A model generated the notes under the pieces. The model searched no databases, was not told the DNA's origin, and saw only the letters and a program-made list of their open reading frames with translations. From NCBI GenBank assembly GCA_031264605.1, contig JAISDQ010000182.1, forward strand, positions 1-16,604: a stretch of DNA of 16,604 nucleotides. Direction: 5' to 3'. The stretch comes from Synergistaceae bacterium (GTDB lineage: Bacteria > Synergistota > Synergistia > Synergistales > Synergistaceae). Position numbers and translations under genes: made by a program. Positions 1 to 16,604 of this stretch are shown in pieces (the first letter of the stretch is position 1; each line of letters starts with the position of its first letter).

Positions 1-862
1 TCTGATCAAGAAAGCGGTCTCCAACGGGGTGCTCAGCTTCCAGATCAATTATCCCGCCGATTCGGTATACGAACTGGAAAATGAGTTTTATTCGCATTTC
101 GACCTTGATAAAGTGGTAATAGTCCCCACCTCCGTGGACGATATCGGCACAAGGATGAAGGATACCTGCGGGATGGTGGCCTCCGATCTGTGCAAGATCA
201 TACGGCCGAACGACATATTGGGGGTTTCGTGGGGCCTCACGATGGATCAGCTCGCCAGCACGATATCCACCGAGATGCTGATAAACAGAAAGTGCGATAA
301 GGTGGTCATGATGAACGGCTCCATAGCGAGCGAGGTGTATTCGACCAAGTCGAGCTACATCGTCGAACAGTTCGCGGACTTCTTCTCCGCCGAGGGATAC
401 CTGCTGCCGGTTCCAATGATCGTCGACAGCAAGGAGTTGGCCGACACGCTAAAGACTGATTCGCACATAAAATACGTCATGGAGTACGCCAATAACTCCC
501 GTCTAGCTGTATTCAGCATCGGAAGCGCGTCGTACGAGTCGGTTTTGCGCAAACGCGGAGCATATTCCAGAGAGGATTACGAGGATGTTTTGACAAGGGG
601 AGCGGTCGGCGATATTTTGGGGCGCTGTTTCGATATAGACGGCCGGTCGGTCGGGGGCGATATAGACGACCGAATCATAGGTATGGACATAGAGACGCTC
701 AAAACCAAGAATACCCGCATTGGGATAGGGGTCGGCGACAAGAAGGCCAGAGCCATAATAGGCGCGCTGCGCGGCGGAATGATCAGCCGCCTTTACACCG
801 ACGGCATGACGGCAAGGGAGGTAGTAAAGCTTCTCAACGCCGCGGACAATGTCGGAACGTAA
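1..862 (+). CDS. SorC/DeoR-family transcriptional regulator, sugar(-phosphate)-binding domain; 5' end (HTH) truncated by window edge
   Basis: The frame is open from base 2 (LIKKAVSNGVLSFQINY...), upstream of the GTG at 29 listed in the track. Motifs typical of the SorC/CggR/DeoR(B. subtilis) effector-binding domain are present: IVPTSVDD, GVSWG, VVMMNGS, VGDILGRCFDIDG and IGIGVGDKKARAIIGALRGG. Stop TAA at 860-862. Confidence 0.8.
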   Translation, partial: LIKKAVSNGVLSFQINYPADSVYELENEFYSHFDLDKVVIVPTSVDDIGTRMKDTCGMVASDLCKIIRPNDILGVSWGLTMDQLASTISTEMLINRKCDKVVMMNGSIASEVYSTKSSYIVEQFADFFSAEGYLLPVPMIVDSKELADTLKTDSHIKYVMEYANNSRLAVFSIGSASYESVLRKRGAYSREDYEDVLTRGAVGDILGRCFDIDGRSVGGDIDDRIIGMDIETLKTKNTRIGIGVGDKKARAIIGALRGGMISRLYTDGMTAREVVKLLNAADNVGT

Positions 863-2014: not shown

Positions 2015-3055
2015 ATGCTGGCTTGCGTATTCAAAAACGGAAAGTTTGAACTTGCCGAAAAACCTGTCCCGAAGGCCTCTTCCGACAGCGCGGTCGTAAA
2101 AATAAAGGCGACGTCCATATGTGGTACTGATTTCAGGACGTACGTCCACGGCAGCAAGAAGATACTCGAAGGCATAACCGTGGGGCACGAGCTTTGCGGC
2201 GAGATAGTCGAGATAGGAGAAAGCGTGGCCGGGTTTGCCAAAGGAGAAAGGGTTACGGTCGCGCCGGCGCTAGGCTGCGGGGAGTGCTACATGTGCAGAA
2301 AAGGGCACTCCAATATGTGCGACAATCTCAAGACTCTGGGGTATCATTTCGACGGTTCCTTCGCCGAGTACATGGAGATTCCGTCTCCGTTCTTCACGCG
2401 CGGACACGTCAATCATGTCGCGCCGTCGGTCGGCTCCGACCAGGCCGCGCTGGCGGAACCGGTGGCATGCGCCGTCAACGCGCAGGAGTTTTTGCGTATA
2501 GAAAAGGGCGACTACGTCGGAATTTTCGGTTCTGGATTCATCGGATGCAGTCACGCTGAACTTGCCGCGGCGCAGGGCGCTGAAAAGATCATAATGATAG
2601 AGCCCAACGCCGACAGGCTTGAGATTGCCAAACGGACGATCCCCGGAATATACGGGATCACCGGCGACGCCGACGTCGCGTCGTCCGTCAGGAAAATAAC
2701 GGATGGCAGGGGCGTTGACGTCGCCATCGTCGCTTGTTCCGTAGGCCCGGCTCAGACGGCCGCGATCGAGATCGCGGCAAAGCGGGGGAGAGTAAGCCTC
2801 TTCGGCGGACTTCCGGGCGAAGGCAGAGGATTTGTGGACAGCAATCTCATCCACTACAACGAACTCGGAATCTTCGGCGTACACGCTTCCACGCCGCAGC
2901 AAAACCGGCATGTCCTCGATTGGCTGGCCAGCGGCAAAATAGATACGGCGAAGTATATAGCGAAGAAATACCCTCTCGGAGATATCATGCAGGCTTTCGA
3001 CGACATAGCGAAAAAGGGCATCATGAAGGCCGTTATAGCCGACGAGGGCTATTAG
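2015..3055 (+). CDS. Zn-dependent alcohol/polyol dehydrogenase (MDR superfamily), second paralog
   Basis: Catalytic Zn ligands in SICGTD and VGHELCGE. Structural Zn site GCGECYMCRKGHSNMC. Rossmann motif IFGSGFIG. GAGGAG RBS before ATG 2015. Confidence 0.85.
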   Translation: MLACVFKNGKFELAEKPVPKASSDSAVVKIKATSICGTDFRTYVHGSKKILEGITVGHELCGEIVEIGESVAGFAKGERVTVAPALGCGECYMCRKGHSNMCDNLKTLGYHFDGSFAEYMEIPSPFFTRGHVNHVAPSVGSDQAALAEPVACAVNAQEFLRIEKGDYVGIFGSGFIGCSHAELAAAQGAEKIIMIEPNADRLEIAKRTIPGIYGITGDADVASSVRKITDGRGVDVAIVACSVGPAQTAAIEIAAKRGRVSLFGGLPGEGRGFVDSNLIHYNELGIFGVHASTPQQNRHVLDWLASGKIDTAKYIAKKYPLGDIMQAFDDIAKKGIMKAVIADEGY

Positions 3056-3106: not shown

Positions 3107-3748
3107 ATGGACGAGGGACGCGTCAAACTCGAGGTCGAGATCAGAAACGCTGTTTTAATGGCGATATATAAAAAAACCGGTGTGAGATATGTGCCGGTCG
3201 CTGTATCGAACAGGCACGCGCATCTCTCGCGCGCGGATATGGAAGTTTTGTTCGGAGCGGGCCGCAAACTGACGCCCATGAAATCTCTCTCGCAGCCGGG
3301 GCAGTACGCCGCGAAAGAGACTCTCTCGCTGACCGGCCCGAAAGGCAGAATAGACGGAATTCGAGTCCTCGGCCCCGAGAGGGGAAGTTCGCAGGTGGAG
3401 ATATCCGTCACGGATTCGTTCAGGCTTGGCATAACGCCGCTCATCCGCATGTCCGGCGATACGGCCGGCAGTCCAGGGGGACGTGTGGAGACGAAGCTCG
3501 GCTCGGTGGAGTTGAGCGAGGGCGTGATCGTCGCGGCAAGGCACATGCACATATCTTCCGCTCAGGCGCAAATCATGGGCCTCTCCGACGGCCAGGCGGT
3601 ATCTCTCAAGTCCGCCGGCGGACGCGGGGTCGTGTTCGACAATGTGGCCGTCAGGAGCGGAGAGGGTTTCGACCTGGAGGTTCACCTCGACACCGACGAG
3701 GCCAACGCGGCGCTTTTGAGGGACGGGGATCTCCTCGAAGTAGTGTGA
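3107..3748 (+). CDS. pduL: PduL/EutD-type phosphate acyltransferase (phosphotransacylase) with N-terminal amphipathic helix (putative encapsulation peptide)
   Basis: Both PduL repeat signatures are present: VPVAVSNRHAHLS and VIVAARHMHIS. Also QPGQYAAKETL, GPKGRIDGIRVLGPER and DTDEANAA. The first ~25 aa (VKLEVEIRNAVLMAIYKK) form an amphipathic helix before the catalytic domain starts. Confidence 0.85.
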   Translation: MDEGRVKLEVEIRNAVLMAIYKKTGVRYVPVAVSNRHAHLSRADMEVLFGAGRKLTPMKSLSQPGQYAAKETLSLTGPKGRIDGIRVLGPERGSSQVEISVTDSFRLGITPLIRMSGDTAGSPGGRVETKLGSVELSEGVIVAARHMHISSAQAQIMGLSDGQAVSLKSAGGRGVVFDNVAVRSGEGFDLEVHLDTDEANAALLRDGDLLEVV

Positions 3749-4452
3749 ATATGTCTGTGCTGGGTGGGATTTTGGATATCTCGGATGAAAGACAGAGGGG
3801 CTTGCTGATCGGCAGGATCGCTCAGGAGGTATTGTCCCGGCTGAGCGCCCTCGATGCGAAGGATGAAAATGTCTCGGGTACGGTGGTGCTGATGACCTCT
3901 CATATTCCGTCGCCCGCGAGCGCGATGTCAAAATTGAGGGAGAACTTCGGCGGCGAATTGTCCTTCATCGACTTCGGGGTGAAGATTCCGTTTGGTCTCC
4001 CGAATGTCATAGACGCCGGGAAAGAGTCGGAGGGAAGTCTGACGGAGACGGTGGCTTCGGCGGCCGGGGTTGTGCTCCTGGCGCCGAAGATAGGATTGCT
4101 CGACAGCATAGCGAAGGGCGACGACAGGGATTTCATCCCGTATCTCGTGATACGCAGCATGCTGTGGGGAAGAGATGTGAGCGTGCTGCTTGATTTCGAG
4201 CCGCCGCGTTTCAGAAGGAACACGTTTTTTGAGAAACTTGCCGATACGTTCGCGATCCTTCAGGACATGGGGGTCAGACTGCTGACTTATAAATGCGCGC
4301 AAAAGGGCGCCGAGGGTCTGTGCCTCGTCACGGAGGCCGACGTCACAGAAGCCTGGAGAAGCCGCAGGACCGAGATACGCCGGGCGCCGGGCGCTATAAT
4401 TACCCCGGCGGCGAAAGACAAGGCCGGAGAACTCGGGATCAGGCTCAATTGA
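3745..4452 (+). CDS. Hypothetical BMC-associated protein, unknown function; N-terminal amphipathic helix (possible encapsulation peptide). May start at ATG 3751.
   Basis: ORF fills the gap between pduL and the BMC-P gene and overlaps the pduL stop (GTGA). Codon usage matches its neighbours. N-terminal LLIGRIAQEVLSRLSAL helix. No recognisable catalytic motifs (no P-loop, no HxH). C-terminal IITPAAKDKAGELGIRL is vaguely reminiscent of PduM-type BMC structural proteins; this is from memory only and unverified. Confidence 0.5.
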   Translation: MNMSVLGGILDISDERQRGLLIGRIAQEVLSRLSALDAKDENVSGTVVLMTSHIPSPASAMSKLRENFGGELSFIDFGVKIPFGLPNVIDAGKESEGSLTETVASAAGVVLLAPKIGLLDSIAKGDDRDFIPYLVIRSMLWGRDVSVLLDFEPPRFRRNTFFEKLADTFAILQDMGVRLLTYKCAQKGAEGLCLVTEADVTEAWRSRRTEIRRAPGAIITPAAKDKAGELGIRLN

Positions 4453-4494: not shown

Positions 4495-4794
4495 ATGCAA
4501 TTATGCAGAGTTAAAGGCACAGTGGTTAGCACCAACAAGAGCGAAAAGCTGAACGGTTTGAAACTGCTGATCGTGAAACCCATTGACATCGAGACGTTCG
4601 AGGAAAAGGGCGGTATAGTCGTGGCGATCGACGCGGTGGGCGCCGGCGAGGGGGAGGTGGTGATGTGCGTCGGGGGGAGTTCTTCGCGCCAGACGGGCAT
4701 CACTGACGGAAAACCGGTGGATCAGTCCATCGTGGCCATCATTGATTCCGTGAATATGAACGGCAAGCGTATTTTTGAAAAATTCAAGGTATAA
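4495..4794 (+). CDS. BMC vertex (pentamer) protein, EutN/PduN/CcmL family (BMC-P), paralog 1
   Basis: MQLCRVKGTVVSTNKSEKLNGLKLLIV...VAIDAVGAGEGEVVMCVGGSSSR is a classic EutN/CcmL fold sequence of ~99 aa. GGAGAAG RBS. Confidence 0.85.
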   Translation: MQLCRVKGTVVSTNKSEKLNGLKLLIVKPIDIETFEEKGGIVVAIDAVGAGEGEVVMCVGGSSSRQTGITDGKPVDQSIVAIIDSVNMNGKRIFEKFKV

Positions 4795-4824: not shown

Positions 4825-6261
4825 ATGGCGCTAAGCGAGGCACAGATCAGACAGCTTGCAAATGACGCGATTCTGGAGGTAAATGGCGCGAAACCATCGG
4901 CGCCTTCGGGAAAACCGGCGTATTCCGTGTTGCCGCCGGCATCTGGGCAGTGGCTGTGCGACGACGCAAACGAAGCGATCGCGAACGCGAAGCGGTCACA
5001 GATGATACTCGCCAGGATGCCGTTGGAGCAGCGGGGCAGGATAATATCGGCAATGAGAGAAGCCGCCGTCAGGCACGCGGAGACGCTTGCCGAACTCGCT
5101 CACAATGAGACCGGTTACGGGAGGGTAGATCACAAGGTTTTGAAGAACCGCCTGGCCGCTGCAAACACGCCTGGCATAGAGGATCTCCGCCCGATGGCGT
5201 ACAGCGGAGACAACGGACTCACCATAGTGGAGGGAGCGCCGTTCGGGGTGATAGGTTCCATAACTCCTTCGACCAATCCTACATCCACGGTCATAAACAA
5301 CTCGATAAGCATGATAGCGGCCGGCAACTCCGTGGTGTACAATCCGCATCCGTCCGCGAAGAATTCTTCCACTGAGGCGATGCGCGTCCTGAATGAAGCG
5401 GCAGCGGCTGCCGGAGGTCCGCCCGCCCTCATGACCACGGTAAAGGTTCCGACTCTGCAGAGCGGAGCTGCCATCATGAGCCACAGGGACGTCAAATTAC
5501 TTTCCATCACGGGCGGCGAGGCCGTCGTCAGCGTGGCGATGAAATCGGGCAAGAAAGTGATCGCCGCCGGGCCCGGAAATCCGCCGGTTATCGTGGACGA
5601 TACCGCCTTCATACCGCAGGCCGCTAAAGATATAGTCGACGGTGCGAGCTTCGACAACAACGTGCTCTGTGTGGCCGAGAAGGAGGTGTTCGCCTTCGAG
5701 GGTATCGCGGGAGAGCTGGTGAGCCAGATGGTACACTGCGGGGCCCACAAAGTTTCCGGAACGGACATCGATAAAATAGTCAATACGGTGTTGGAGAAGC
5801 GCGACGGCAAGTACGTCATAAACAGAAATTTCGTAGGGCGCAGCGCGACCCATATACTCGAACAGAGCGGAGTCCCTTACGTCGGGGAGCCGAGGCTGGT
5901 CATAGCCGAAGTGGACAAGTACCATCCGTTTGTGACGACTGAAATGCTGATGCCGGTGCTTCCGGTCGTCCGCGTCGGCAACATAGACGAAGCCATCGAG
6001 GAAGCGCTTCGCGCGGAACAGGGATATCAGCATTCGGCCATGATTCACTCCACGAACATACGGAATATGTCCGCCGCGGCCTACGCGCTGAACACGACGA
6101 TATTCGTGAAGAATGCGCCGTCATACAGCGGATTGGGCTTCGGGGGGGAGGGCTACGCCACTCTTACGATAGCGACTCCGACCGGGGAGGGCCTGACGAG
6201 CGCGAAGTCCTTTACCCGTGCCAGGCGATGCGTATTGAAGGGCGATTTCAGAATCGTCTGA
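4825..6261 (+). CDS. CoA-acylating aldehyde dehydrogenase (PduP/EutE family) with N-terminal encapsulation peptide and Pro/Ser-rich linker
   Basis: ITPSTNPTST motif. Catalytic Cys in FDNNVLCVAEKE. AAGPGNPP motif. ~478 aa. N-terminus SEAQIRQLANDAILEV (amphipathic) followed by NGAKPSAPSGKPAYSVLPPASGQ linker. Confidence 0.9.
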   Translation: MALSEAQIRQLANDAILEVNGAKPSAPSGKPAYSVLPPASGQWLCDDANEAIANAKRSQMILARMPLEQRGRIISAMREAAVRHAETLAELAHNETGYGRVDHKVLKNRLAAANTPGIEDLRPMAYSGDNGLTIVEGAPFGVIGSITPSTNPTSTVINNSISMIAAGNSVVYNPHPSAKNSSTEAMRVLNEAAAAAGGPPALMTTVKVPTLQSGAAIMSHRDVKLLSITGGEAVVSVAMKSGKKVIAAGPGNPPVIVDDTAFIPQAAKDIVDGASFDNNVLCVAEKEVFAFEGIAGELVSQMVHCGAHKVSGTDIDKIVNTVLEKRDGKYVINRNFVGRSATHILEQSGVPYVGEPRLVIAEVDKYHPFVTTEMLMPVLPVVRVGNIDEAIEEALRAEQGYQHSAMIHSTNIRNMSAAAYALNTTIFVKNAPSYSGLGFGGEGYATLTIATPTGEGLTSAKSFTRARRCVLKGDFRIV

Positions 6262-6268
6262 TTCGATC

Positions 6269-7576
6269 ATGAACGTAGCGGAGATGATTCGCAGCGCCGG
6301 AGTGGTGGGAGCCGGAGGCGCGGGATTCCCGACCCACGTCAAGGTAAACGCGGCTTCGCCCGAGTGCGTCATAGCCAACGGAGCGGAGTGCGAGCCTTTA
6401 TTGCGGGTGGATCAGCAAGTCATGGAGTTCCACGCCGGTTCTGTCATTGAAGGGTTGCGTCTGGTCATGAGCCATACTGACGCGCGTCGTGGCGTCATCG
6501 CCCTGAAGGATCACTACGAGGGCGCGATAACGGCTCTCCGGCGTGAGTTGTCCGGCTCGGACGACATAGGGCTTCACGTCATGAGAAGCTACTATCCCGC
6601 CGGGGACGAACAGCAGCTAGTGTACGATATCTGCGGGCGGGTCGTTCCGACAGGCGGGATTCCTCTTGATGTGGGGGCGGTGGTATTGAACGTCAGCACG
6701 CTTATGCACGTGGACGAAGGGAGCCGGAACATCCCGGTGACGGATAAATATGTGACGGTCGGCGGAGCGGTTCGCAGGCCTGTTACGGTCAAGGCCCCGA
6801 TAGGCGCGCCGATGGACGTTTTACTCGACGCCGCCGGAGGGACGACGGAGAAATGCGGTTACATAATCGGAGGGCCCTGTATGGGCAGAGTTGTCTCAGA
6901 CCTGAGCTTCCCGGTCGTGAAAACTACCGGAGGGATCATAGCGATACCGGAGGGACATCCGCTCCTTCAAAAAAAGAGCGATCGCATGAGCGTGCAGCTT
7001 ATCAAAGCCGTGTGCTGTCAGTGTTCCTTATGCACCCAGATGTGCCCCAGAAACGCGCTTGGGCTTCGCGTCGAACCTCATAAGGCTATGCGCAGCCTGG
7101 CCCAGGGAGTCGACCTGCTAAATGGGGCGAATGGCCTTTTCTCCTGCTGTGACTGCGGGATATGCACATACTACGCCTGCAATTTCGGCCTGAAACCGTC
7201 CAAGGTCATGGGACTGCTGAAGGCTGAAATGCAGAAGGCGGGAGTCAAGCCCAGGAAGGAAGTTTACTCGGCGGCCGACAGGGGGCTCGGCATGAAGAAA
7301 CTGCCCACCGCAAGGCTCATACACAGGTTGGGCATAGGGAAGTACGATGTGGCGGCTCCCATGGAGGAGCGTCCGATTTATACGGCCGTCGTCAGGATAC
7401 CCCTCAAGATGCACATAGGCGCCCCATCCAAGCCGGTTGCCTCGGTCGGACAGCGCGTAAACAGGGGCGATCTGATTGCCGATATACCGGAGGGGGCATT
7501 GGGCGCGAAAGTACACGCGAGCATCGACGGGACGGTTACCGAAGTGACCGGCGAATATATGGAGATAAAGGTGTAG
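6269..7576 (+). CDS. pduS: PduS-like Fe-S flavoprotein (RnfC/NADH-dehydrogenase 51 kDa-like domain plus two 4Fe-4S ferredoxin motifs)
   Basis: N-terminus MIRSAGVVGAGGAGFPTHVK matches the PduS/RnfC signature. Two cluster motifs: CCQCSLCTQMCP and CCDCGICTYYAC. The stop is only 4 nt upstream of the PduT-like gene. Confidence 0.8.
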   Translation: MNVAEMIRSAGVVGAGGAGFPTHVKVNAASPECVIANGAECEPLLRVDQQVMEFHAGSVIEGLRLVMSHTDARRGVIALKDHYEGAITALRRELSGSDDIGLHVMRSYYPAGDEQQLVYDICGRVVPTGGIPLDVGAVVLNVSTLMHVDEGSRNIPVTDKYVTVGGAVRRPVTVKAPIGAPMDVLLDAAGGTTEKCGYIIGGPCMGRVVSDLSFPVVKTTGGIIAIPEGHPLLQKKSDRMSVQLIKAVCCQCSLCTQMCPRNALGLRVEPHKAMRSLAQGVDLLNGANGLFSCCDCGICTYYACNFGLKPSKVMGLLKAEMQKAGVKPRKEVYSAADRGLGMKKLPTARLIHRLGIGKYDVAAPMEERPIYTAVVRIPLKMHIGAPSKPVASVGQRVNRGDLIADIPEGALGAKVHASIDGTVTEVTGEYMEIKV

Positions 7577-7579
7577 CTG

Positions 7580-8128
7580 ATGGGACAGGCGCTTGGAATG
7601 ATTGAACTCATAAGTGTTCCCGCTGGGATCGAGGCCGGCGACGCGATGCTGAAAGCCGCCGCCGTGGAATTGGTGACGGCGCAGGCGGCTTGCGCGGGCA
7701 AATACTTCGTCGCGGTCACCGGCGAGGTGGCCGCGGTGGAAGCGAGCGTCAAAGCCGGCAGGGAAGCCGCGTCCATGAAGCTGATCGACAGTCTCGTGAT
7801 ACCGAATATAGACGCGCAGGTACCCCTCGCCATCAACATGTGCAGCGATCCGGGGGAAATAGAGACGCTCGGGGCGATAGAGACGTTCTCTCTGTGCGCC
7901 GCGATAGTGGCGGCGGACTGCGCCGTGAAAGCCGCGCGGGTACGGCTCATAGAGATCAGGCTGGGCAGAGGGTTGGGCGGCAAGTCGTTCATAACTCTCA
8001 CCGGCGATGTGGCGGCGGTAAAAGCCGCGGTGAAAGCCGCCTCGGAAGTCGAAGAAGTCAGAGGCCTGATGGCGGAGAGCGTGGTAATACCTTCGCCGCA
8101 CCCCGATATGGTCAAGGCGGTATTTTGA
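7580..8128 (+). CDS. pduT: PduT-like tandem-domain shell protein (BMC-T) with conserved pore cysteine (Cys38) for a 4Fe-4S cluster
   Basis: 182 aa with two BMC domains. Aligns along its length to Salmonella PduT: MGQALGMIELISVPAGIEAGDAMLKAA, IDSLVIPNIDAQVPLAI and GAIETFSLCAAIVAADCAVKA...VIPSPHPDM. Cys at residue 38 (TGC 7691-7693) is at the position of the PduT cluster ligand. Confidence 0.8.
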   Translation: MGQALGMIELISVPAGIEAGDAMLKAAAVELVTAQAACAGKYFVAVTGEVAAVEASVKAGREAASMKLIDSLVIPNIDAQVPLAINMCSDPGEIETLGAIETFSLCAAIVAADCAVKAARVRLIEIRLGRGLGGKSFITLTGDVAAVKAAVKAASEVEEVRGLMAESVVIPSPHPDMVKAVF

Positions 8129-8169: not shown

Positions 8170-8481
8170 ATGTCCAAAGAAGCACTGGGAATGGTTGAGA
8201 CAAGAGGGCTGATAGGCGCGATCGAGGCGGCGGACGCTATGGTAAAGGCCGCCAACGTTTCCCTGATCGGCAAACAGCAGATCGGAAGCGGGCTGGTCAC
8301 TGTCATGGTGAGAGGTGACGTAGGGGCCGTGAAAGCCGCTGTCGACGCCGGAGCGGCGGCCGCCAAGAGGGTAGGCGAACTCTACGGCGTGCATGTCATC
8401 CCCAGCCCCCATGGGGACGTGGAAGGCATACTGCCGACGATTAACGCCGCTCCCCCGGCGCCGGCGAAGTCGAAAGCATAA
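8170..8481 (+). CDS. BMC hexamer shell protein (BMC-H, PduA/EutM-like), copy 1, with Ala/Pro-rich C-terminal tail
   Basis: [26 protein letters not shown]...[16 protein letters not shown] is the canonical Pfam00936 domain. Tail [24 protein letters not shown]. Confidence 0.9.
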
Positions 8482-8488
8482 ACGAGCC

Positions 8489-8755
8489 GTGTACGCGGGC
8501 GAGGTCGTCGGGTGCGTAGTAGCTACGGTTAAGGAACCCAACCTGGAGGGTATACCGCTCCTGGTGGTGAGGGTAATCGAAAACGGCAAGCCGGCCAATC
8601 TGGTGGTTGCCGCGGATTCGACCCGTCAGGCCGGCAGCGGCGACCATGTGTACATGATCGGCTCCAAGGAGGCCGCTCGCATGTTCCGTAAGAAGCTGAC
8701 TCCGGTGGATGTGGCGATTGTGGGTTTTATTGACGAATACAGGGAGGAACTTTGA
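8489..8755 (+). CDS. BMC vertex protein (EutN/PduN family, BMC-P), paralog 2; probable GTG start
   Basis: VYAGEVVGCVVATVKEPNLEGIPLLVVRVIENGKP...AADSTRQAGSGDHVYMIGSKEAARMF. The same frame stays open upstream to 8393, but that stretch overlaps the BMC-H tail in another frame and is Arg-rich junk. GTG at 8489 gives the canonical MxxAxVVGxVV start. Confidence 0.7.
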   Translation: MYAGEVVGCVVATVKEPNLEGIPLLVVRVIENGKPANLVVAADSTRQAGSGDHVYMIGSKEAARMFRKKLTPVDVAIVGFIDEYREEL

Positions 8756-8794: not shown

Positions 8795-9073
8795 ATGGAG
8801 AAATTGGCGCTTGGTATGGTAGAGACGAGGGGTTTGATAGGCGCGATCGAAGCGGCGGACGCCATGGTTAAGGCCGCTAACGTGACTCTGATTGGCAAGG
8901 AACAGATCGGCAGCGGTCTCGTGACCGCTATGGTGAGAGGCGACGTGGGCGCGGTAAAGGCGGCCGTCGACGCCGGAGCGGCGGCGGCGAAAAGAGTCGG
9001 CGAACTCTATGGCGTACACGTTATCCCAAGCCCGCACAACGACGTCGAGGGTATTCTGCCCGGCAAAAAATAG
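8795..9073 (+). CDS. BMC hexamer shell protein (BMC-H), copy 2 (near-identical protein to copy 1, diverged at synonymous sites)
   Basis: [97 protein letters not shown]. Confidence 0.9.
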
Positions 9074-9082
9074 GGGACGCCG

Positions 9083-9370
9083 GTGAGAATCGCCGCAGTC
9101 GTAGGAAACGTAGTTTCCACGATAAAGGACGAGTCATACCGCGGATACAAACTTATGATCATCGAATACCTGAACGAGGACGGAAAACCGTCCGGGGCGC
9201 GTCAGATAGCGTTTGACGCCGGACAGGCCGGCATAGGCGACGTAGTGCTCGTCAACGTGGACGGGGGAGCGGCGAACATGATGCTCGATAAAGACGTCAT
9301 CGCCGATCTCACAATTTGCGGCGTCCTGGACAGCTATACCTATGACGGGAAGACGAAGGTATTCTTCTGA
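9083..9370 (+). CDS. BMC vertex protein (EutN/PduN family, BMC-P), paralog 3; GTG start
   Basis: MRIAAVVGNVVSTIKDESYRGYKLMII...AFDAGQAGIGDVVLVNVDGGAANMM matches the EutN fold sequence. Confidence 0.8.
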   Translation: MRIAAVVGNVVSTIKDESYRGYKLMIIEYLNEDGKPSGARQIAFDAGQAGIGDVVLVNVDGGAANMMLDKDVIADLTICGVLDSYTYDGKTKVFF

Positions 9371-9383
9371 GGTGGTGGTTGAA

Positions 9384-10133
9384 ATGGATATTGAAAAGAT
9401 CGTGAGCGATGTGCTCAAGGAGGTTCAATCCGGGGGAACTGTTCACGGAAAACCCTCGCCGGGTTCGGTTCAGGCGTGGGAAGTTCCGTCGAAGCTGGAG
9501 CACTCGCTGCTGAACCCGGATGTCGGCCTCGGCAAGATATTGGCGGAGTGCGCCGTCGCGCGGCGGTATTGCGTAGCGGCGGTCTGTGTCGCGCCCTATT
9601 ATGTGTCCGCCGCCGCCGACGTCCTGAGAGGAAGCGGCGTAAAGGTCTGCGCCGCGATAGGTTTCCCGCACGGTTGCATGTCGGCGGCGTCAAAACTGGC
9701 CGAAGCGCGCGAGTGCGTCAAAAACGGCGCGGACGAAATCGACGTCGCGATGAACATTCTTGCGGTAAAATCGGGCAGGATCGCCGACGCAAGGGACGAT
9801 TTCGAACAGATAGCGGCCGCCTCGCGCGGAAAGACTACGCTCAAGGCGGTTTTCGAGCACAGCGTGTACTCCGACGAGGAGAAGCGCGCCGTGCTGGAAA
9901 TCGTGAAGACCTGCGGAGCCGAGTTCGTGAAGATACAAAACGTCCTGAGCGGCAAGGGCGCCGAAACCGAGGACATAAAATATGTGAGGAATATCCTGGG
10001 CCGTAACGTGAAAGTCAAGATCGACGGCGGCGTAAAGACGCTGGCGAAGGCGATGGAACTGTTGTCCGCGGGAGCGGATCGCATAGGACTCACAGCGACC
10101 GCGGCGATCGCGAAAGAGGCGGAGTGTAAATAA
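9384..10133 (+). CDS. Divergent DeoC-family class I aldolase (deoxyribose-phosphate aldolase-like) with N-terminal extension (putative encapsulation peptide)
   Basis: TIM-barrel DeoC architecture: AAVCVAPYYV, AAIGFPHG, EFVKIQNV (Schiff-base Lys retained) and KVKIDGGVKT (second Lys retained). The consensus TSTGF and phosphate-loop GTSSG are replaced by IQNVL and GLTAT. N-terminus MDIEKIVSDVLKEVQS plus a Gly/Pro/Ser linker. ATG 9384 with GAGGTGG RBS; the track's start at 9342 overlaps the upstream gene. Confidence 0.7.
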   Translation: MDIEKIVSDVLKEVQSGGTVHGKPSPGSVQAWEVPSKLEHSLLNPDVGLGKILAECAVARRYCVAAVCVAPYYVSAAADVLRGSGVKVCAAIGFPHGCMSAASKLAEARECVKNGADEIDVAMNILAVKSGRIADARDDFEQIAAASRGKTTLKAVFEHSVYSDEEKRAVLEIVKTCGAEFVKIQNVLSGKGAETEDIKYVRNILGRNVKVKIDGGVKTLAKAMELLSAGADRIGLTATAAIAKEAECK

Positions 10134-10164: not shown

Positions 10165-11001
10165 ATGAGCGCGATAGATATCAATGAAATTATCAGGCAG
10201 GTGACTGCCGAGATATGCGCCAACTACGGCGCGGCTTCTTCCGCGCCGGCTGATGAGTACAGTCCGGCGTCGCTGGCGAAGTACATCGACCATACGCTGC
10301 TTAAGCCCGACGCCAGCCTGAACGATATACGCAAGGTCTGTGACGAAGCAAAGAAGCATAACTTCGCTAGCGTGTGCGTGAACACCGGCTACATAAAATT
10401 CGTAGCCGACGCTCTGGAGGGCAGCGGAGTGGCGCCATGCTGCGTCGTCGGTTTCCCGCTGGGAGCCATGATGCCCGAGGCCAAAGCGGCCGAGGCGCTG
10501 TGCGCCGTCAACAGCGGCGCTAAAGAGGTCGACATGGTCATAAACGTCGGAGCGGTGAAATCATCCGACTGGAAATTGGTCCACAGCGACATAGAGGGCG
10601 TCGTGACGGCGGCTCGCGGAAGAGCCATAGTGAAGGTGATAATAGAGACATGCCTCCTCACCGACGAGGAAAAGGTGAAGGCATGCGCGATCAGCAAACT
10701 CGCGGGGGCTCATTTCGTGAAAACGTCCACCGGATTTTCGACCGGCGGAGCGACGGTGGAAGACGTGCGTCTGATGCGCCGGACAATAGGTCCCGATATG
10801 GGACTCAAGGCATCCGGAGGAGTGAGGACGTACGAGGACGCGGTCAACATGCTGAAGGCCGGAGCCACCAGGCTGGGAACCAGTTCAGGAACGAAGATCG
10901 TATCGGGCGACGGCGCGGCGGAGCACAAATGCGTGAACTGCGGAGCGTGCAAAGTCGTGTGCCCGAGCGGCAGGGCCACGGTCATAAAAGGCCTGTACTG
11001 A
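10165..11001 (+). CDS. deoC: Deoxyribose-phosphate aldolase (DeoC) with N-terminal encapsulation-peptide-like extension and C-terminal CxxCxxCxxxCP 4Fe-4S ferredoxin-type motif
   Basis: Canonical DERA motifs: YIDHTLLKPDA, VCVNTGY, VVGFPLGA, HFVKTSTGFSTGGAT, GLKASGGVRT and RLGTSSG. N-terminus MSAIDINEIIRQVTAEI plus an Ala/Ser/Pro linker. C-terminal tail KCVNCGACKVVCP (nt 10930-10965). Confidence 0.85.
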   Translation: MSAIDINEIIRQVTAEICANYGAASSAPADEYSPASLAKYIDHTLLKPDASLNDIRKVCDEAKKHNFASVCVNTGYIKFVADALEGSGVAPCCVVGFPLGAMMPEAKAAEALCAVNSGAKEVDMVINVGAVKSSDWKLVHSDIEGVVTAARGRAIVKVIIETCLLTDEEKVKACAISKLAGAHFVKTSTGFSTGGATVEDVRLMRRTIGPDMGLKASGGVRTYEDAVNMLKAGATRLGTSSGTKIVSGDGAAEHKCVNCGACKVVCPSGRATVIKGLY

Positions 11002-11023: not shown

Positions 11024-11779
11024 ATGAGAAAACCGATTATCGCCGGTAACTGGAAGATGAACATGACGCCGTCACAGACGGTGAAGCTGATCGAGGAGAT
11101 CAAGCCTCTCGTCGCGGAGGCGAGATGTGAGATCGTCGTCTGTCCGACCCATACGTGCCTCTTTGCGGCTAAAGAGGCCCTTAAAGGGACGGACAGAATA
11201 TCCCTCGGCGCTCAGGACATGTTTTACGAGGAGAGGGGCGCTTTCACCGGCGAGGTCTCCTGCGAATCGCTGCTCGAACTCGGCGTCAGATACGTGATCA
11301 TCGGACATTCGGAGCGCCGCCAATACTTCGCCGAGTCCGACGAGACGGTCAGCAAAAAAGTCACGAAGGCCCTGGAAAAACGCCTGATTCCGATTGTCTG
11401 CGTGGGCGAGTCGCTCACGCAGAAACAGCGGGGAGTTACGAACGAAACCGTGGGGTTGCAGACGCGTCTCGCGCTTTTCGGCGTCGGCGCCGGAAACGCG
11501 GAGGACGTCGTGATAGCGTACGAACCGATCTGGGCAATCGGAACAGGCATGACGGCCACCAGCGCGGAGGCGAACGGCACGATACGCCGTATAAGAGGCG
11601 TCCTCGCCGAGATGTACAATCCGGAAACCTCGCGGAAAGTCCGCATTCTTTACGGGGGCAGCATGAACGCCGGAAACGCAGGGGAATTGCTTTCAACGAG
11701 CGACATAGACGGAGGACTGATAGGCGGCGCGAGCCTGAAGAGCGGCGATTTCGCGCAAATCGTGGGCAACTTGAGCTGA
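11024..11779 (+). CDS. tpiA: Triosephosphate isomerase
   Basis: IIAGNWKMN, catalytic His in IIGHSERR, AYEPIWAIGTG (catalytic Glu) and YGGSMN. No N-terminal extension. Confidence 0.9.
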   Translation: MRKPIIAGNWKMNMTPSQTVKLIEEIKPLVAEARCEIVVCPTHTCLFAAKEALKGTDRISLGAQDMFYEERGAFTGEVSCESLLELGVRYVIIGHSERRQYFAESDETVSKKVTKALEKRLIPIVCVGESLTQKQRGVTNETVGLQTRLALFGVGAGNAEDVVIAYEPIWAIGTGMTATSAEANGTIRRIRGVLAEMYNPETSRKVRILYGGSMNAGNAGELLSTSDIDGGLIGGASLKSGDFAQIVGNLS

Positions 11780-11928: not shown

Positions 11929-13125
11929 CTAATAGACAACCTCTATTTTCTTGCCGCACTTGGATGATTCGGCAAGGGTCTCCAGAATGACCGCTGCTCT
12001 GTAGCCGTCCTCGAACGTAGCGCATAACGGGCCAACTTCTTTGTCGTTTGCCACACAGTCGAGAAAATGAGCGATCAGATTGATGTGACCGTGTTCCCAG
12101 CCGCAATTATGGCCTGCGGGCCACCATATCTTCATGAACGGATGATTGGGCAGCGTGCAGGAAATTCTTGTAAAGCCGGCAATTTCGGGAACAGGCGCTT
12201 CTCTGAGCTGCACATTGAGATAAGTAGGATCCTCGAGGCTCCATGTAATAGTTCCTTTTGTTCCGTAGATCTCCCAATAAAGATGGTTATACCTGCCGGA
12301 TGCGACTGACATGTTTTCAATGGTTCCGGTAGCGCCGTTGTTAAAGTCAATGAGAGCCCGAATGCTGTCATCATAAGGCACATCGACCATAGCGCCGTTT
12401 TTGCGGGCGGAGGGTCTCTGTTTCGGGATAGAACGCATATCGCCCGTTATCGAAGCAACTTCGCCAACGAGGAATCGAGCCTGGTCAATAAGGTGCGTTC
12501 CCAACCCCTGGGAGTTGCCTGTCATGTTTTGATACCAGACGTTTTCAACAGGGAGATCGAGAGGAAGGGCATATTCCTGATGATATCTTCCGTAAAAGTG
12601 AAGTATGTCGCCGACCGCCCCTTTGTTGATAAGCTCGTACGCAAGCCTGACAGCGCCTTGAAAACGATAGTTAAAACACAGAGCGTTCTTGACGTTTGCC
12701 TTATTGACCGCGTCCAGCATTTTTTTTGACGCTTCTCTGCCCAAGGCCATCGGTTTTTCGCATATGATATGTTTGCCGGCTTCGGCAGCGTCAATACAAG
12801 GCTGCATGTGAAGACTGTCCACACAGACATTGTCAAATACAGAAACGTCAGGATCCGCGATAAGATCTTTCCAGCCGCCATAATGGTTCTTGAAGCCGTA
12901 CCTGTCAGCGGCAGCCTTGGCATTTTCCACGGTGGAAGCGCTAATTGCGATCAGTTCCGGCACATAGTTTGTTTCAAACATATAGCTGATCGTCTTGTAC
13001 GCATTGGAATGAGCCTTGCCCATGAAGCCCCTGCCAAAAAGACCGATTCCGATTTTTTTTCTGGGCTGTGAGAAATCGCCGACACTGTAACCTATACCTA
13101 TGTTTTTTACTTCGCTCATAATCAC
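11929..13125 (-). CDS. Gfo/Idh/MocA-family NAD(P)-dependent oxidoreductase
   Basis: N-terminal Rossmann motif IGIGLFGRGFMGKAHSNAY and the family hallmark EKPMAL. ~398 aa. AGGTG RBS before ATG. Confidence 0.8.
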   Translation of the reverse strand: MIMSEVKNIGIGYSVGDFSQPRKKIGIGLFGRGFMGKAHSNAYKTISYMFETNYVPELIAISASTVENAKAAADRYGFKNHYGGWKDLIADPDVSVFDNVCVDSLHMQPCIDAAEAGKHIICEKPMALGREASKKMLDAVNKANVKNALCFNYRFQGAVRLAYELINKGAVGDILHFYGRYHQEYALPLDLPVENVWYQNMTGNSQGLGTHLIDQARFLVGEVASITGDMRSIPKQRPSARKNGAMVDVPYDDSIRALIDFNNGATGTIENMSVASGRYNHLYWEIYGTKGTITWSLEDPTYLNVQLREAPVPEIAGFTRISCTLPNHPFMKIWWPAGHNCGWEHGHINLIAHFLDCVANDKEVGPLCATFEDGYRAAVILETLAESSKCGKKIEVVY

Positions 13126-13248
13126 CGCACCTTTTTTCTTTGCGTCTTCCTACCCTCTTTTAATACTATTTCCCATAGTACACCCTTATCCGCCGCTCCG
13201 GCTATTTCACGGAATATTTCACAAAGACCTTACCTGGCATGTCTCGCC

Positions 13249-14025
13249 TCACTCATCCCTCCCGGCGTATATGACGGTTGCGTAGCTTGTGCCGGATTCT
13301 ACGCGGCGGCCCAGAATATCCGACGAGTCCGTGTGTTCCATGACGACGCCCTTTACCGCGCCGAGTTCGCTGAACAGACGGAGGACAAGCGACGCGGCTC
13401 TCCGCGCGTCGATATCCAAGCGGCCGGTTTGCATCGGTTCCAGGGCCGTCAGGACTTCGAGAGTCAGTTCGTCCTCCTGGCGCATCGCTTCAGGGGTTTT
13501 GTAATGCGACAGATCCATGCTCAAAATGATCATGTCGCTTTCCAGCGCCGCTTCGAGCATGTATTTTTTCAGCATCAGGAGAGCGATATCGGGTATGTTC
13601 GGTTTCAGCACCATAGGGACGACCGTCGCGTTGGGGAAATACCGCGCGATGAACGGAATGTGGATGGTGATTCCGTGTTCTTCCGCGAAAAGACGCGGAT
13701 TTGACGTGACCACGCTCAAGCCGGAGAAACCGCTTTTCGCGTCGTCGTCGGCTTTAACTGTCCATCCCGCCGTTTGCCAATCATCGCCGCATACCTCGGC
13801 GTAATTTCTTGCCCGTTTGAAATGGTCGGGCGACAGCAGCCACACGCGTCTGACCTTATCCGAGGAAACGCGTTCATAAAACCGCGATATCATGTCCAGC
13901 GCGAGACCGTGGTGCGGCACGATTCCCCCGAGTATCCGCGCTCCGGCGTCCGCGTTCGCTGACGCCGAAAGCGCAAAAAACATGCCGCAGAAAACGGCGA
14001 CAAACAGGCGTTTCTTTGCCGTCAT
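13249..14025 (-). CDS. MEMO1 / AmmeMemoRadiSam-system protein B family protein with N-terminal signal peptide (exported)
   Basis: GGIVPHHGLALD and LSMDLSHY resemble the MEMO1 His/Asp-containing motifs. N-terminus MTAKKRLFVAVFCGMFFALSASANA is a typical Sec signal peptide with an AxA cleavage site. Its start codon overlaps the stop of the upstream gene (ATGA). Confidence 0.65.
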   Translation of the reverse strand: MTAKKRLFVAVFCGMFFALSASANADAGARILGGIVPHHGLALDMISRFYERVSSDKVRRVWLLSPDHFKRARNYAEVCGDDWQTAGWTVKADDDAKSGFSGLSVVTSNPRLFAEEHGITIHIPFIARYFPNATVVPMVLKPNIPDIALLMLKKYMLEAALESDMIILSMDLSHYKTPEAMRQEDELTLEVLTALEPMQTGRLDIDARRAASLVLRLFSELGAVKGVVMEHTDSSDILGRRVESGTSYATVIYAGRDE

Positions 14026-16604
14026 CGCGTGTTTTCCTTAAATTCTCTATACCAGTCGGGGCAGAGCCGTTCCAATTCATTTTCGCGGCCCGGGTCGTAT
14101 ACTATGGCCTTCCATTCCTCGTCCGTCATACGCTCGGACACGGAGCGCTCGAACTCGTAATACGAAAAAACGTAGCCTTTTGTGACGCGGGCCCCGCCGG
14201 ATTTGTCGTTCGCGAATACGTAAATCGCCCGCGGTGTCCCGGAAGCCGCTTCCAGAACCGTCATATCCCAACCGTTCGTCGCCGTATCCGCCACGCACGC
14301 CATCTTCCTCAGCTCTCCGTCGTCCGTCAGCATGCCGTATCCGGGAAGAAGAAGGAATCTGTCGAAAGCGCGCGCTGTCTCCTTGATCGAAGCGTATTCG
14401 CCTGGGGATAGCGTCTCTTTGGTAACTTCCTTCCTCGCGATATCCCTCATAGATTCGAGCATCGCCGAAAATTTTCCGAGTCTGTCGGAATATTTCGTCT
14501 CGCCGTCGCCATCGTTGTCCTCCACGCCGAAGCCTTCTATGAAAGCCCTCAAATTGTCCGTCGCGCCGAGCATCGCTGAGAAGAACTGCGGATCGGGCTC
14601 CACGTAGCCTCTCGGTCGCGGAGGCTCGAATCCGCCGGCATACCAGTTGTCGCCGCCCTCGCCCATCTCCGCCATGCTCTGCTCGGCGTACAAAATGGTG
14701 TCGTGTTTTAGTTCGGCCCATGAAGCCAGATTCGTCGCCAGTTTCTTCCATCGCCACCCCTCGGTTCCGTAAAAAAACTGCTCCGATCCCGAGTCTTTGA
14801 AACCGGCCAGAAACGTTTCGAGCCAGCTAGCGTAGACGGTGTTCTCCCCGGCGAGATATCCGGCGGCTTCGTCTTTCAGTTCCGCAAGGCTGGCTTCGTA
14901 GTTTTCAATGTCGTAATCGTTTTTCGAGAGAGCGTCCGCGGCGGACGACCCGAATACCGCCATGACGTCCGTTCCCTTCGGCATGTTCCGCGGGTTTTCA
15001 TCGGTTCCGACGCTGGGCGACGTAAGCCGGTTCATTATGTAAGCGTCATAGGTGAAGCGTTTGGGCGAGATTCTGAAAACCGCGCTTCTGGATTCGAAAT
15101 CAGCCCCTGCCGCGTCAATCCCCGCGACGCTCCGAATCTTCGGCCCCGAAACGTTTTCCGCGATATCCTCCGCGAGACGGGCAATCACGGCTTCGTCGCC
15201 GAGGAGCGCCCAGGCATCCTGTCCGCCGTCTCCCAAGCGTTTCCGCACGATCCCGCGATAAATTTTCGGGTCTCCGGCGTTGGGAACGCCTATCAGCAAA
15301 GTCATCGCGTCCTCGAACGTCTCCCAGTTTCCCCTCTGCGCGTCCATCGCGAGAGCGATTGCCGCGGCGGCCGCGACGTTGTGCGCGATCGGTTTTCCGT
15401 CCATGCCGAACATCGGCAGTTCGGCGAGCCCGACGTAACTCATCGCGCGAAAGTAGCGTTCGTACTCGGGGGAGATCGTGTAGTGTCCGCGCGGTTTGAA
15501 CAGCGTGTAGTCGATTTTCTGTCCGGTTATACCCGAAACTTCCATTTCGGAGGCCGCCATGATTTTTTCGGTTTCCGCGGCCGCTCGCGGCGATAGTTTT
15601 TCGCCCGCCGGATTTTCCGACAACAGCGCTTGTGCGACCGACAACATATCATGGGCTGTGTCGAAAGACCGCCGCGCGGCGTCCCCGCCGTCCGAGCGCT
15701 TTCGCGCCGCATCCACCAGGCCGATCGCCCCGTTCAAATTCTCCGCGAGCTGGGGCGCGAGGTATGTGCGCTCGAATTTTTGCAGCATCTGGTCGAATAT
15801 GAGATGGAACGAATGGAGAAAAATATCCGCCGTGATGAAATCCGCCTCGTACTCTCCCGTAAGCGAGTAAAGATCGGCCATATCGTCGACACGGACGCCG
15901 TATTCATCAGGCAAAAGAGCCTTGTCGTCTATGAGAAACCCACGTTTTTCGAGCGAATCGGCGAATCGTTCCGGCAGATTTTCGATATTTTCCGCGCCGC
16001 CCGGCTCGGCGCGCAATCTTCGCGACGAGGGTATGAGGGCGCGGTCGGCTTTCGAGTTGTCCGGTTCGTACGAGTCCAGCACGATGAAATCTTCCCCGCG
16101 TCCCCACGCGAAACGGCGGCCTACGCCGGATTCTCCGTCAACCGTGCCGAAGGACATGAGCACATATCCGTCGCGTTTCCCGTACGAGGGAACGATTTCT
16201 CCTTTAAGCAGCGAAAAATCACGCCCCGGCAGATCGCTTTTGCCGCCGCCGGGCATCAGTGAAAGTTCCGGCCCGTCGCGGAGGGCCATATAGAGCGCGC
16301 CGCGGGTTGGTTCGCAATCCGGAAACGGCTCTACGCCGTCCTCGGGAATATAGCCCAGCACGCTGCCGTCATCCGGAGATATGAGCGCGAACCAGCCGCA
16401 TTCGGGACGCAACGTCAGTTTGTTGCCGTAGACGACGACGCCTTCTATATCGTCGCCGTATTCGATCCCGCCGTCGCCGGTTTTGGCGTATTCGCCGCCC
16501 GGCGAGTTCATGATCGGCAGTATTTCCGCGACGACGGTATATTCTCCCTCGCCCGCCGCCTCGCGGGAAGCCGCGCGCGCCTCTCCGTCAAACGCCAGAA
16601 GCAG
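14022..16604 (-). CDS. Large conserved hypothetical protein (>860 aa; possibly DUF3160-like), N-terminus beyond window
   Basis: Continuous minus-strand frame with no stop from 16604 down to 14022, so the ATG at 16511 in the track is probably internal. Codon usage matches a genuine CDS. Acidic and Gly-rich, with no catalytic motif recognisable by eye. Translationally coupled to the MEMO-like gene. Confidence 0.5.
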   Translation of the reverse strand: MLLAFDGEARAASREAAGEGEYTVVAEILPIMNSPGGEYAKTGDGGIEYGDDIEGVVVYGNKLTLRPECGWFALISPDDGSVLGYIPEDGVEPFPDCEPTRGALYMALRDGPELSLMPGGGKSDLPGRDFSLLKGEIVPSYGKRDGYVLMSFGTVDGESGVGRRFAWGRGEDFIVLDSYEPDNSKADRALIPSSRRLRAEPGGAENIENLPERFADSLEKRGFLIDDKALLPDEYGVRVDDMADLYSLTGEYEADFITADIFLHSFHLIFDQMLQKFERTYLAPQLAENLNGAIGLVDAARKRSDGGDAARRSFDTAHDMLSVAQALLSENPAGEKLSPRAAAETEKIMAASEMEVSGITGQKIDYTLFKPRGHYTISPEYERYFRAMSYVGLAELPMFGMDGKPIAHNVAAAAAIALAMDAQRGNWETFEDAMTLLIGVPNAGDPKIYRGIVRKRLGDGGQDAWALLGDEAVIARLAEDIAENVSGPKIRSVAGIDAAGADFESRSAVFRISPKRFTYDAYIMNRLTSPSVGTDENPRNMPKGTDVMAVFGSSAADALSKNDYDIENYEASLAELKDEAAGYLAGENTVYASWLETFLAGFKDSGSEQFFYGTEGWRWKKLATNLASWAELKHDTILYAEQSMAEMGEGGDNWYAGGFEPPRPRGYVEPDPQFFSAMLGATDNLRAFIEGFGVEDNDGDGETKYSDRLGKFSAMLESMRDIARKEVTKETLSPGEYASIKETARAFDRFLLLPGYGMLTDDGELRKMACVADTATNGWDMTVLEAASGTPRAIYVFANDKSGGARVTKGYVFSYYEFERSVSERMTDEEWKAIVYDPGRENELERLCPDWYREFKENTR

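Follow-up and report, generated by a model that had tools for sequence, protein, structure and literature searches.

What is the role of the protein encoded between the phosphotransacylase gene pduL and the first vertex-protein gene of a bacterial microcompartment (BMC) locus in a member of the Synergistaceae? The window analysed here is a stretch of 16,604 nucleotides, contig JAISDQ010000182.1 of assembly GCA_031264605.1, from a Synergistaceae metagenome-assembled genome, and its plus strand carries the microcompartment locus. The protein in question is annotated in GenBank as the hypothetical protein LBL05_06890 and is called X below. Its membership of the eut_hyp/PduM superfamily is close to certain. 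On balance, we favour the view that X acts as a non-catalytic shell-cargo linker of an SPU4-like sugar-phosphate microcompartment, a role suggested by comparative analysis. X and its two conserved partners are placed as follows, and residues of X are numbered throughout by the 233-aa form that begins at ATG 3751.

3107..3748, plus strand: pduL (PF06130 phosphotransacylase), the conserved upstream partner of X
3751..4452, plus strand: coding sequence of X (eut_hyp/PduM-type accessory protein), coordinates per GenBank annotation, 233 aa, ATG at 3751
4495..4794, plus strand: BMC-P vertex protein (PF03319), the conserved downstream partner of X, in the PduN/EutN position

Purifying selection acts on the open reading frame (ORF) at 3745-4452, which is a genuine gene. 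Its ratio of non-synonymous to synonymous substitution (dN/dS) is 0.14-0.23 when measured against four Synergistaceae orthologues, which, together with the homologues found, confirms the coding status proposed in an earlier note made from the sequence of this DNA.

To which family does X belong? A Pfam scan with X alone gave nothing significant, only a chance-level match to TXNDC16_N (E 0.14), and an NCBIfam scan gave no match, TIGR02536 included, even at E <= 10. X also falls below the curated cut-offs for PduM (27 bits for PF15953 and 50 bits for TIGR04493), matching neither model. A word-indexed search returned 20 close homologues, all unnamed. With the alignment of these 20 as query, an exhaustive HMMER search at E <= 1e-3 returned 345 cluster representatives, of which 165 also passed E <= 1e-10; most are 215-250 aa long. 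Among the 121 full-length members of our broad family alignment, each of which was scanned, 111 match TIGR02536 (eut_hyp) at E <= 0.01, with a best E of 7.8e-13. These matches are sub-threshold: the best score, from 20 members scanned one by one, is 48.5 bits against a cut-off of 152.6. The PduM models TIGR04493 (sub-threshold) and PRK15428 are matched by 39/121 and 20/121 members, the N-terminus of the EutQ model (NF012001, positions 3-51) by seven, and Pfam PF15953 (PDU_like) by five.

Alignment of profiles with hhalign connects the family to both TIGR02536 and PduM. The broad alignment pairs with the Listeria TIGR02536 protein at 97.6% (E 4e-12), and the alignment of the close clade does so at 89.5% (E 1.9e-6) over 181 columns that include the N-terminal helix. 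Set against a 15-sequence PduM alignment, the broad alignment reaches 94.2% (E 1.2e-7), with residues 101-233 of X corresponding to PduM 41-162. The close clade gives weak alignments to single PduM or C. difficile TIGR02536 sequences, and homology to PduM is significant only when the broad family profile meets a PduM alignment. Searches of PDB sequences with the close and broad profiles found no real match. The earlier suggestion that X recalls PduM-like structural or scaffold proteins while being ~70 aa longer was therefore correct, and no family assignment of the kind that would have counted against that idea emerged: the families related to X are BMC-specific.

The genomic setting of X is conserved well beyond the window. 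A survey of one genome per species, with the close alignment as query, recovered 68 other BMC loci with full or near-full homologues, so that the presence of orthologues, proposed earlier as a check, can be affirmed. Their carriers are Synergistaceae, Christensenellaceae (including Christensenella hongkongensis), Oscillospiraceae/Faecousia and Anaerotruncus colihominis. BMC-P comes after X in all 68. Upstream sequence is available for 62, and PduL precedes X in 60 of these, which supports the proposed linkage of X to pduL. The triad PduL-X-BMC-P is usually followed by AldDH-PduS-BMC-T-BMC-H...DeoC-DeoC-TPI, and RpiB is absent from nearly all of these loci. PduM occupies the same slot in Salmonella, where the order is pduL-pduM-pduN with a 4-nt overlap of pduL and pduM, as does TIGR02536 in C. 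difficile and Listeria, where the order is eutD(PduL-type)-TIGR02536-eutN.

More distant members (P0187, P0163) reside in canonical SPU loci with DeoC, RpiB, TPI and a BMC-P triplet. In two canonical SPU4 loci (L006, L007), X is found between TIM and AldDH, and a PTA_PTB enzyme is encoded far from X. Natural fusions also occur: P0069 (412 aa) joins PduL to X without its N-terminal helix, and P0161 (367 aa) joins PduL to two tandem copies of the C-terminal module of X. Two further apparent fusions, P0043 and P0060, share an identical C-terminal part behind unrelated N-termini; they were judged likely mis-assemblies and dropped.

Gene content around the triad varies in a few loci. One from Clostridia bacterium MS499-83 (BNUG01000009.1; L002/L025) has the same PduL-X-BMC-P-AldDH-PduS-BMC-T-BMC-H core, and a class II aldolase and two genes of the URO-D family (PF01208) lie in its flanks. 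DeoC was not detected in this locus, which may represent a different substrate module on the same chassis. Two loci of Anaerotruncus colihominis (L066, L070) retain X and BMC-P, with a class II aldolase in place of the upstream PduL, and AldDH was not detected in them at the tblastn threshold used.

How, then, is X built? An AlphaFold2 (AF2) model, with a predicted local distance difference test score (pLDDT) of 80.3 and a predicted template modelling score (pTM) of 0.63, comprises a helix (13-33), a low-confidence linker, an alpha/beta core (44-180) and a beta-alpha-beta-alpha module (190-228). Conservation across the family, as the mean fraction of the top residue, is highest in the module (0.53), followed by the C-terminal part of the core (0.44), the N-terminal helix (0.35) and the N-terminal part of the core (0.28), and is below 0.2 in the linkers. 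We distinguish four parts.

3787..3849, plus strand: N-terminal amphipathic helix, residues 13-33, 'ERQRGLLIGRIAQEVLSRLSA', from the AF2 model, hydrophobic moment and comparison with PduM
3850..3879, plus strand: linker, residues 34-43, with pLDDT 54 and conservation 0.19
3880..4290, plus strand: Rossmann-like alpha/beta core, residues 44-180, of predicted HFCD/UbiX/EpiD flavoprotein fold, from the AF2 model and alignments
4315..4446, plus strand: C-terminal beta-alpha-beta-alpha module of ~45 residues, 189-232, 'LVTEADV...AIITPAAKDKAGELGIRL', the most conserved region of the family

The N-terminus has the features of an encapsulation peptide (EP). With a hydrophobic moment of 0.44-0.47, the helix contains the top 18-residue window of X, at about the 95th percentile of shuffles, and it resembles both PduM 1-23 and the N-terminus of the Listeria TIGR02536 protein. 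X fits the pattern of EP-bearing BMC cargo, namely a terminal amphipathic helix, a poorly conserved linker and a body, and the EP-like N-terminus described in the earlier note is accordingly well founded. In related loci, a short hidden Markov model (HMM) of the helix also marks the terminal positions at which DeoC, PduL and a class II aldolase carry their EPs; the matches are weak, as is usual for a query of ~20 residues. Within the window, short N-terminal helices of the EP type are present on both DeoC paralogues, AldDH and PduL. In PduM, residues 1-23 are a validated signal sequence that targets proteins to the microcompartment core, and PduM without these residues still associates weakly with microcompartments (PMC12108088).

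In the core, residues 101-180 are common to PduM, whereas residues 44-100 are weakly conserved and absent from it. In HFCD enzymes, the flavin phosphate is held by one half of this core, the very half that shows least conservation in X and that PduM has lost. None of the 121 members matches PF02441 at E <= 0.01. The alignment to E. coli UbiX and Dfp is not significant (hhalign E 0.15), and the relation to flavoproteins is therefore one of fold. By eye, the Ser, Asn and Thr of the PASANT-type motif appear to be substituted in X. The close clade does possess an invariant polar cluster, formed by D125, R135, D148, R156, N157, T158 and E161. The Listeria TIGR02536 protein has been predicted as a trimer stacked on the EutL trimer in a 2026 structural atlas (PMC13181095).

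The C-terminal module is distributed far more widely than X itself. Its 'IITPAAKDKAGELGI' motif is the best-conserved part of the family and matches the C-terminus of PduM, a resemblance that the earlier note had rightly picked out. The module follows the consensus 'LxTExDV…IITPxAxDxAxELGI', and no Pfam model covers its ~45 residues. An HMM built from residues 189-232 of X matches E. coli EutQ 2-45 over its full length (24.5 bits), a match that overlaps the published shell-binding H1/H2 region (9-41). In Salmonella EutQ, residues 9-41 (H1/H2) bind the shell and H3/H4 bind cargo EPs, and deletion of either pair uncouples shell from cargo (PMC12487888, 2025). By the same HMM, PduM and both TIGR02536 proteins carry the module C-terminally, and Firmicute EutT-type adenosyltransferases carry it N-terminally. 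RpiB has it as an N-terminal extension in SPU loci of Calditrichaceae, Bacteroidota and Cytophagia (L078 9983-10633, L081 9986-10669, L083 9974-10639). It is also found at the C-terminus of PduL in Coatesbacteria-type loci, in one or two copies (including L080 56-871 and L082 9200-10156), and at the N-terminus of EutQ-type cupins (L085 9992-10714, E 1e-12; L086 9998-10660, E 4e-10). Wherever the stand-alone module is joined to RpiB, PduL or an EutQ-type cupin, the connection is a low-complexity linker.

A helix at one end, a module at the other and a body between them, in the genomic slot of PduM and eut_hyp, make up the anatomy of a shell-cargo linker. The analysis demonstrates family membership, architecture, synteny and the distribution of the module; which partners X binds, how it oligomerises and that it lacks a cofactor are inferred. 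In the mechanism that we propose, the amphipathic helix on its flexible linker would join the cargo core, as PduM 1-23 does, alongside the comparable helices of AldDH, PduL and both DeoC aldolases. The central flavoprotein-fold domain, with no recognisable flavin motifs, would serve as a structural and probably oligomerising body, possibly a trimer like that of HFCD proteins and the one that Listeria TIGR02536 is predicted to form on EutL. The C-terminal module would dock on the shell at its lumenal face, in the manner of EutQ H1/H2, and X would be co-expressed with PduL and the vertex protein BMC-P. Deletion of pduM is known to separate shell partly from cargo (PMC9132943).

Several points weigh against a linker. 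The interactions proposed for X are all transferred from distant relatives, namely PduM, EutQ and TIGR02536, and X itself has no HMMER match to the models of any of the three. The alignment of the close clade alone to PduM is not significant. The AF2 model is of only moderate confidence (pLDDT 80, pTM 0.63), and the published model of EutQ has H1/H2 as helices only. Further, the invariant polar cluster could be a ligand site rather than an interface.

That last point keeps alive the idea that X is a functional flavoprotein-like binder of a flavin, a nucleotide or a phospho-sugar, concerned with cofactor or redox handling, for example with the adjacent PduS/PduT pair. We regard this as unlikely. 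The PF02441 searches were negative for all members and PDB sequences gave no match, the half of the core that would carry the HFCD flavin-phosphate loop is the part that has diverged most and is missing from PduM, the PASANT-type residues are replaced, and TIGR02536 occurs in EUT2 loci without PduS. The Rossmann-like core might also suggest that X is a novel enzyme of the lumen, for instance an isomerase or mutase acting on sugar phosphates to supply the DeoC aldolases, as the earlier note had proposed, and the lack of RpiB in this locus type could leave a pathway step without its enzyme. This proposal found no support and is very improbable: X has no catalytic-family match, canonical SPU4 loci carry both X and RpiB, and conservation peaks in the docking module instead of the pocket-forming core. 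An enzymatic reading of X was rejected for want of a catalytic signature.

A role confined to PduL is a further alternative. X might be a PduL-specific adaptor or regulator that places the phosphotransacylase at a vertex or at the shell, rather than a general linker. Its position directly downstream of PduL in 60/62 loci, the often overlapping or tight PduL-X junctions of relatives, and the natural fusions of PduL with X (P0069) or with one or two modules (P0161, L080, L082) all fit such a role. Against it stand the canonical SPU4 loci in which X lies away from a distant PTA_PTB, the Anaerotruncus loci without an upstream PduL, and the presence of the module on RpiB, EutQ and EutT, which is not what PduL specificity predicts; the pduM deletion phenotype, too, is a global uncoupling of shell and cargo (PMC9132943). 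We consider a PduL adaptor doubtful, to much the same degree as a ligand binder, and retain the shell-cargo linker as the preferred explanation. A broader version of the linker, which we put forward only tentatively, is that PduM, TIGR02536 and the SPU protein X belong to a single ancient family of adaptors with a flavoprotein fold, no longer able to bind flavin and maybe trimeric, with the ~45-residue module as a portable, folded shell-docking domain.

Where translation of X begins affects both its length and its relation to pduL. Candidate starts are GTG 3745 (235 aa), ATG 3751 (233 aa) and TTG 3772 (226 aa). The earlier note proposed GTG 3745, which overlaps the pduL stop as GTGA, or the ATG 6 nt later, and both codons do exist. 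Comparison of orthologues makes TTG 3772 the likelier start, because 'TTG GAC' is kept at the equivalent position in L012-L015, an in-frame stop lies upstream of the conserved TTG in L013 and L014, and GGTGG stands ahead of that TTG in the window, L012 and L013.

3762..3769, plus strand: Shine-Dalgarno-like motif GGGTGGGA, just 5' of the conserved TTG 3772, with the same GGTGG in L012 and L013

X is thus probably 226 aa long and begins 23 nt after pduL, and the 235-aa form with a GTGA overlap was judged less likely. Overlapping or abutting PduL-X junctions are seen in more distant relatives, as well as in Salmonella and Listeria.

The rest of the window provides the setting in which X would act.

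29-862, plus strand: SorC-type regulator
875-1972 and 2015-3055, plus strand: two Zn-dependent alcohol dehydrogenases
4825-6261, plus strand: aldehyde dehydrogenase (AldDH)
6269-7576, plus strand: PduS/RnfC-like protein
7580-8128, plus strand: tandem BMC-T with Cys38
8170-8481, plus strand: BMC-H
~8441-8755, plus strand: BMC-P
8795-9073, plus strand: BMC-H
9083-9370, plus strand: BMC-P
9342-10133 and 10165-11001, plus strand: two DeoC aldolases
11024-11779, plus strand: TPI
11929-13125, minus strand: GFO/IDH/MocA oxidoreductase
13249-14025, minus strand: Memo-like protein
14022-16511, minus strand: large DUF3160 protein

The minus-strand genes at 11929-16511 have no obvious link to the microcompartment. 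The ORF of the SorC-type regulator covers only the sugar-binding domain, and its orthologue in L001 is a protein of 325 aa with a helix-turn-helix; the remaining N-terminal portion is probably encoded beyond the beginning of the contig or ahead of the start that was called. The first DeoC (9342-10133) is divergent, scoring only 28 bits to PF01791. The second DeoC/DERA paralogue (10165-11001) ends in a tail of ~25 aa, EHKCVNCGACKVVCPSGRATVIKGLY, at about 10921-10998 on the plus strand, which holds a complete ferredoxin-type CxxCxxCxxxCP motif with weak Fer4_7/Fer4_8 matches. Both the tail and its Cys motif are retained on the equivalent DeoC in 30 related loci from three bacterial families. We know of no described aldolase with an Fe-S-type Cys motif. 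The locus with this tail also encodes PduS and the Cys38 BMC-T, and the tandem BMC-T directly follows the PduS/RnfC-like flavo-Fe-S protein. The Cys at position 38 is presumably like the Fe-S pore residue of PduT, and the two proteins would make a PduS/PduT-type electron-relay pair.

How much of this was already on record? The earlier description of X as an unknown protein was overstated. Sutter et al. (2021) record, for nearly every SPU4 locus, a protein of eut_hyp type with relations to TIGR02536 and pfam02441 flavoproteins (Supplementary Data 2, PMC8217296). They interpret its N-terminus, an amphipathic helix of 30-40 aa and a poorly conserved stretch, as an EP. That such a protein exists, and what it is in general terms, was therefore known, and X is a divergent addition to this type. 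In the searchable literature, we did not find the homology of SPU X to PduM, the conserved PduL-X-BMC-P triad across PDU, EUT2 and SPU, or the finding that the module is the same as the EutQ segment that binds the shell and also occurs on RpiB, PduL and EutT. Indeed, a 2025 study of PduM states that it has no known homologues outside Pdu microcompartments (PMC12108088), and a 2024 SPU paper calls the RpiB extension simply a typical EP. The PduM homology, the triad and the module spread are modest extensions of the known record.

If the linker model is true, one mechanism of shell-cargo coupling would join PduM, EutQ and the uncharacterised eut_hyp proteins. It would also extend to SPU, a poorly characterised type that is among the most widespread BMCs and is carried by gut commensals such as Christensenella, Anaerotruncus and Faecousia. 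Several hundred 'hypothetical proteins' would gain a name. If the portable docking domain is also true, it would represent a second general class of BMC targeting signal, distinct from amphipathic encapsulation peptides and reused on EutQ, EutT, RpiB and PduL across PDU, EUT and SPU organelles. Being compact, the module might be considered as a tag for directing cargo into engineered shells.

Compared with known systems, the locus conforms most closely to SPU4. The window contains the SPU4 gene set of AldDH, DeoC (pfam01791), PduL-type phosphotransacylase, TPI, a BMC-P triplet and an eut_hyp-type protein, and shares with SPU4 two similar BMC-H and PduS with BMC-T. It differs in having two DeoC genes and no signature enzyme RpiB (pfam02502), none being present in the window; RpiB is also missing from 11/29 curated published SPU4 loci. 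SPU4 is described mostly in Firmicutes, whereas the host here belongs to the Synergistaceae. The clade of X is too divergent to match TIGR02536, unlike the catalogued SPU4 protein, whose entry gives no function, does not connect it with PduM and leaves its C-terminal module unanalysed.

X itself combines features of several proteins. With HFCD/UbiX/EpiD/Dfp flavoproteins (PF02441) it is predicted to share the Rossmann-like fold, and it differs from them in lacking significant sequence similarity and recognisable flavin motifs and in carrying additional terminal BMC-targeting elements. The N-terminal H1/H2 segment of EutQ resembles the module of X in sequence, yet the module is N-terminal in EutQ and C-terminal in X, and EutQ additionally has a cupin domain (PF06249, with no Pfam match in X) and the EP-binding helices H3/H4. 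TIGR02536 proteins of Firmicute EUT2 loci (Listeria, C. difficile) resemble X in full-length homology, N-terminal helix and C-terminal module; they belong to a different BMC type and are uncharacterised save for the predicted trimer on EutL. PduM, at 163 aa, lacks X residues ~50-100, and X, at 226-235 aa, has an additional alpha/beta segment of ~60 residues. The two proteins share a similar N-terminal helix ('LQRIVEEIVSRL' against 'LIGRIAQEVLSRL') and a homologous C-terminal region of ~120 residues, and their predicted secondary structures agree at a 60-residue offset.

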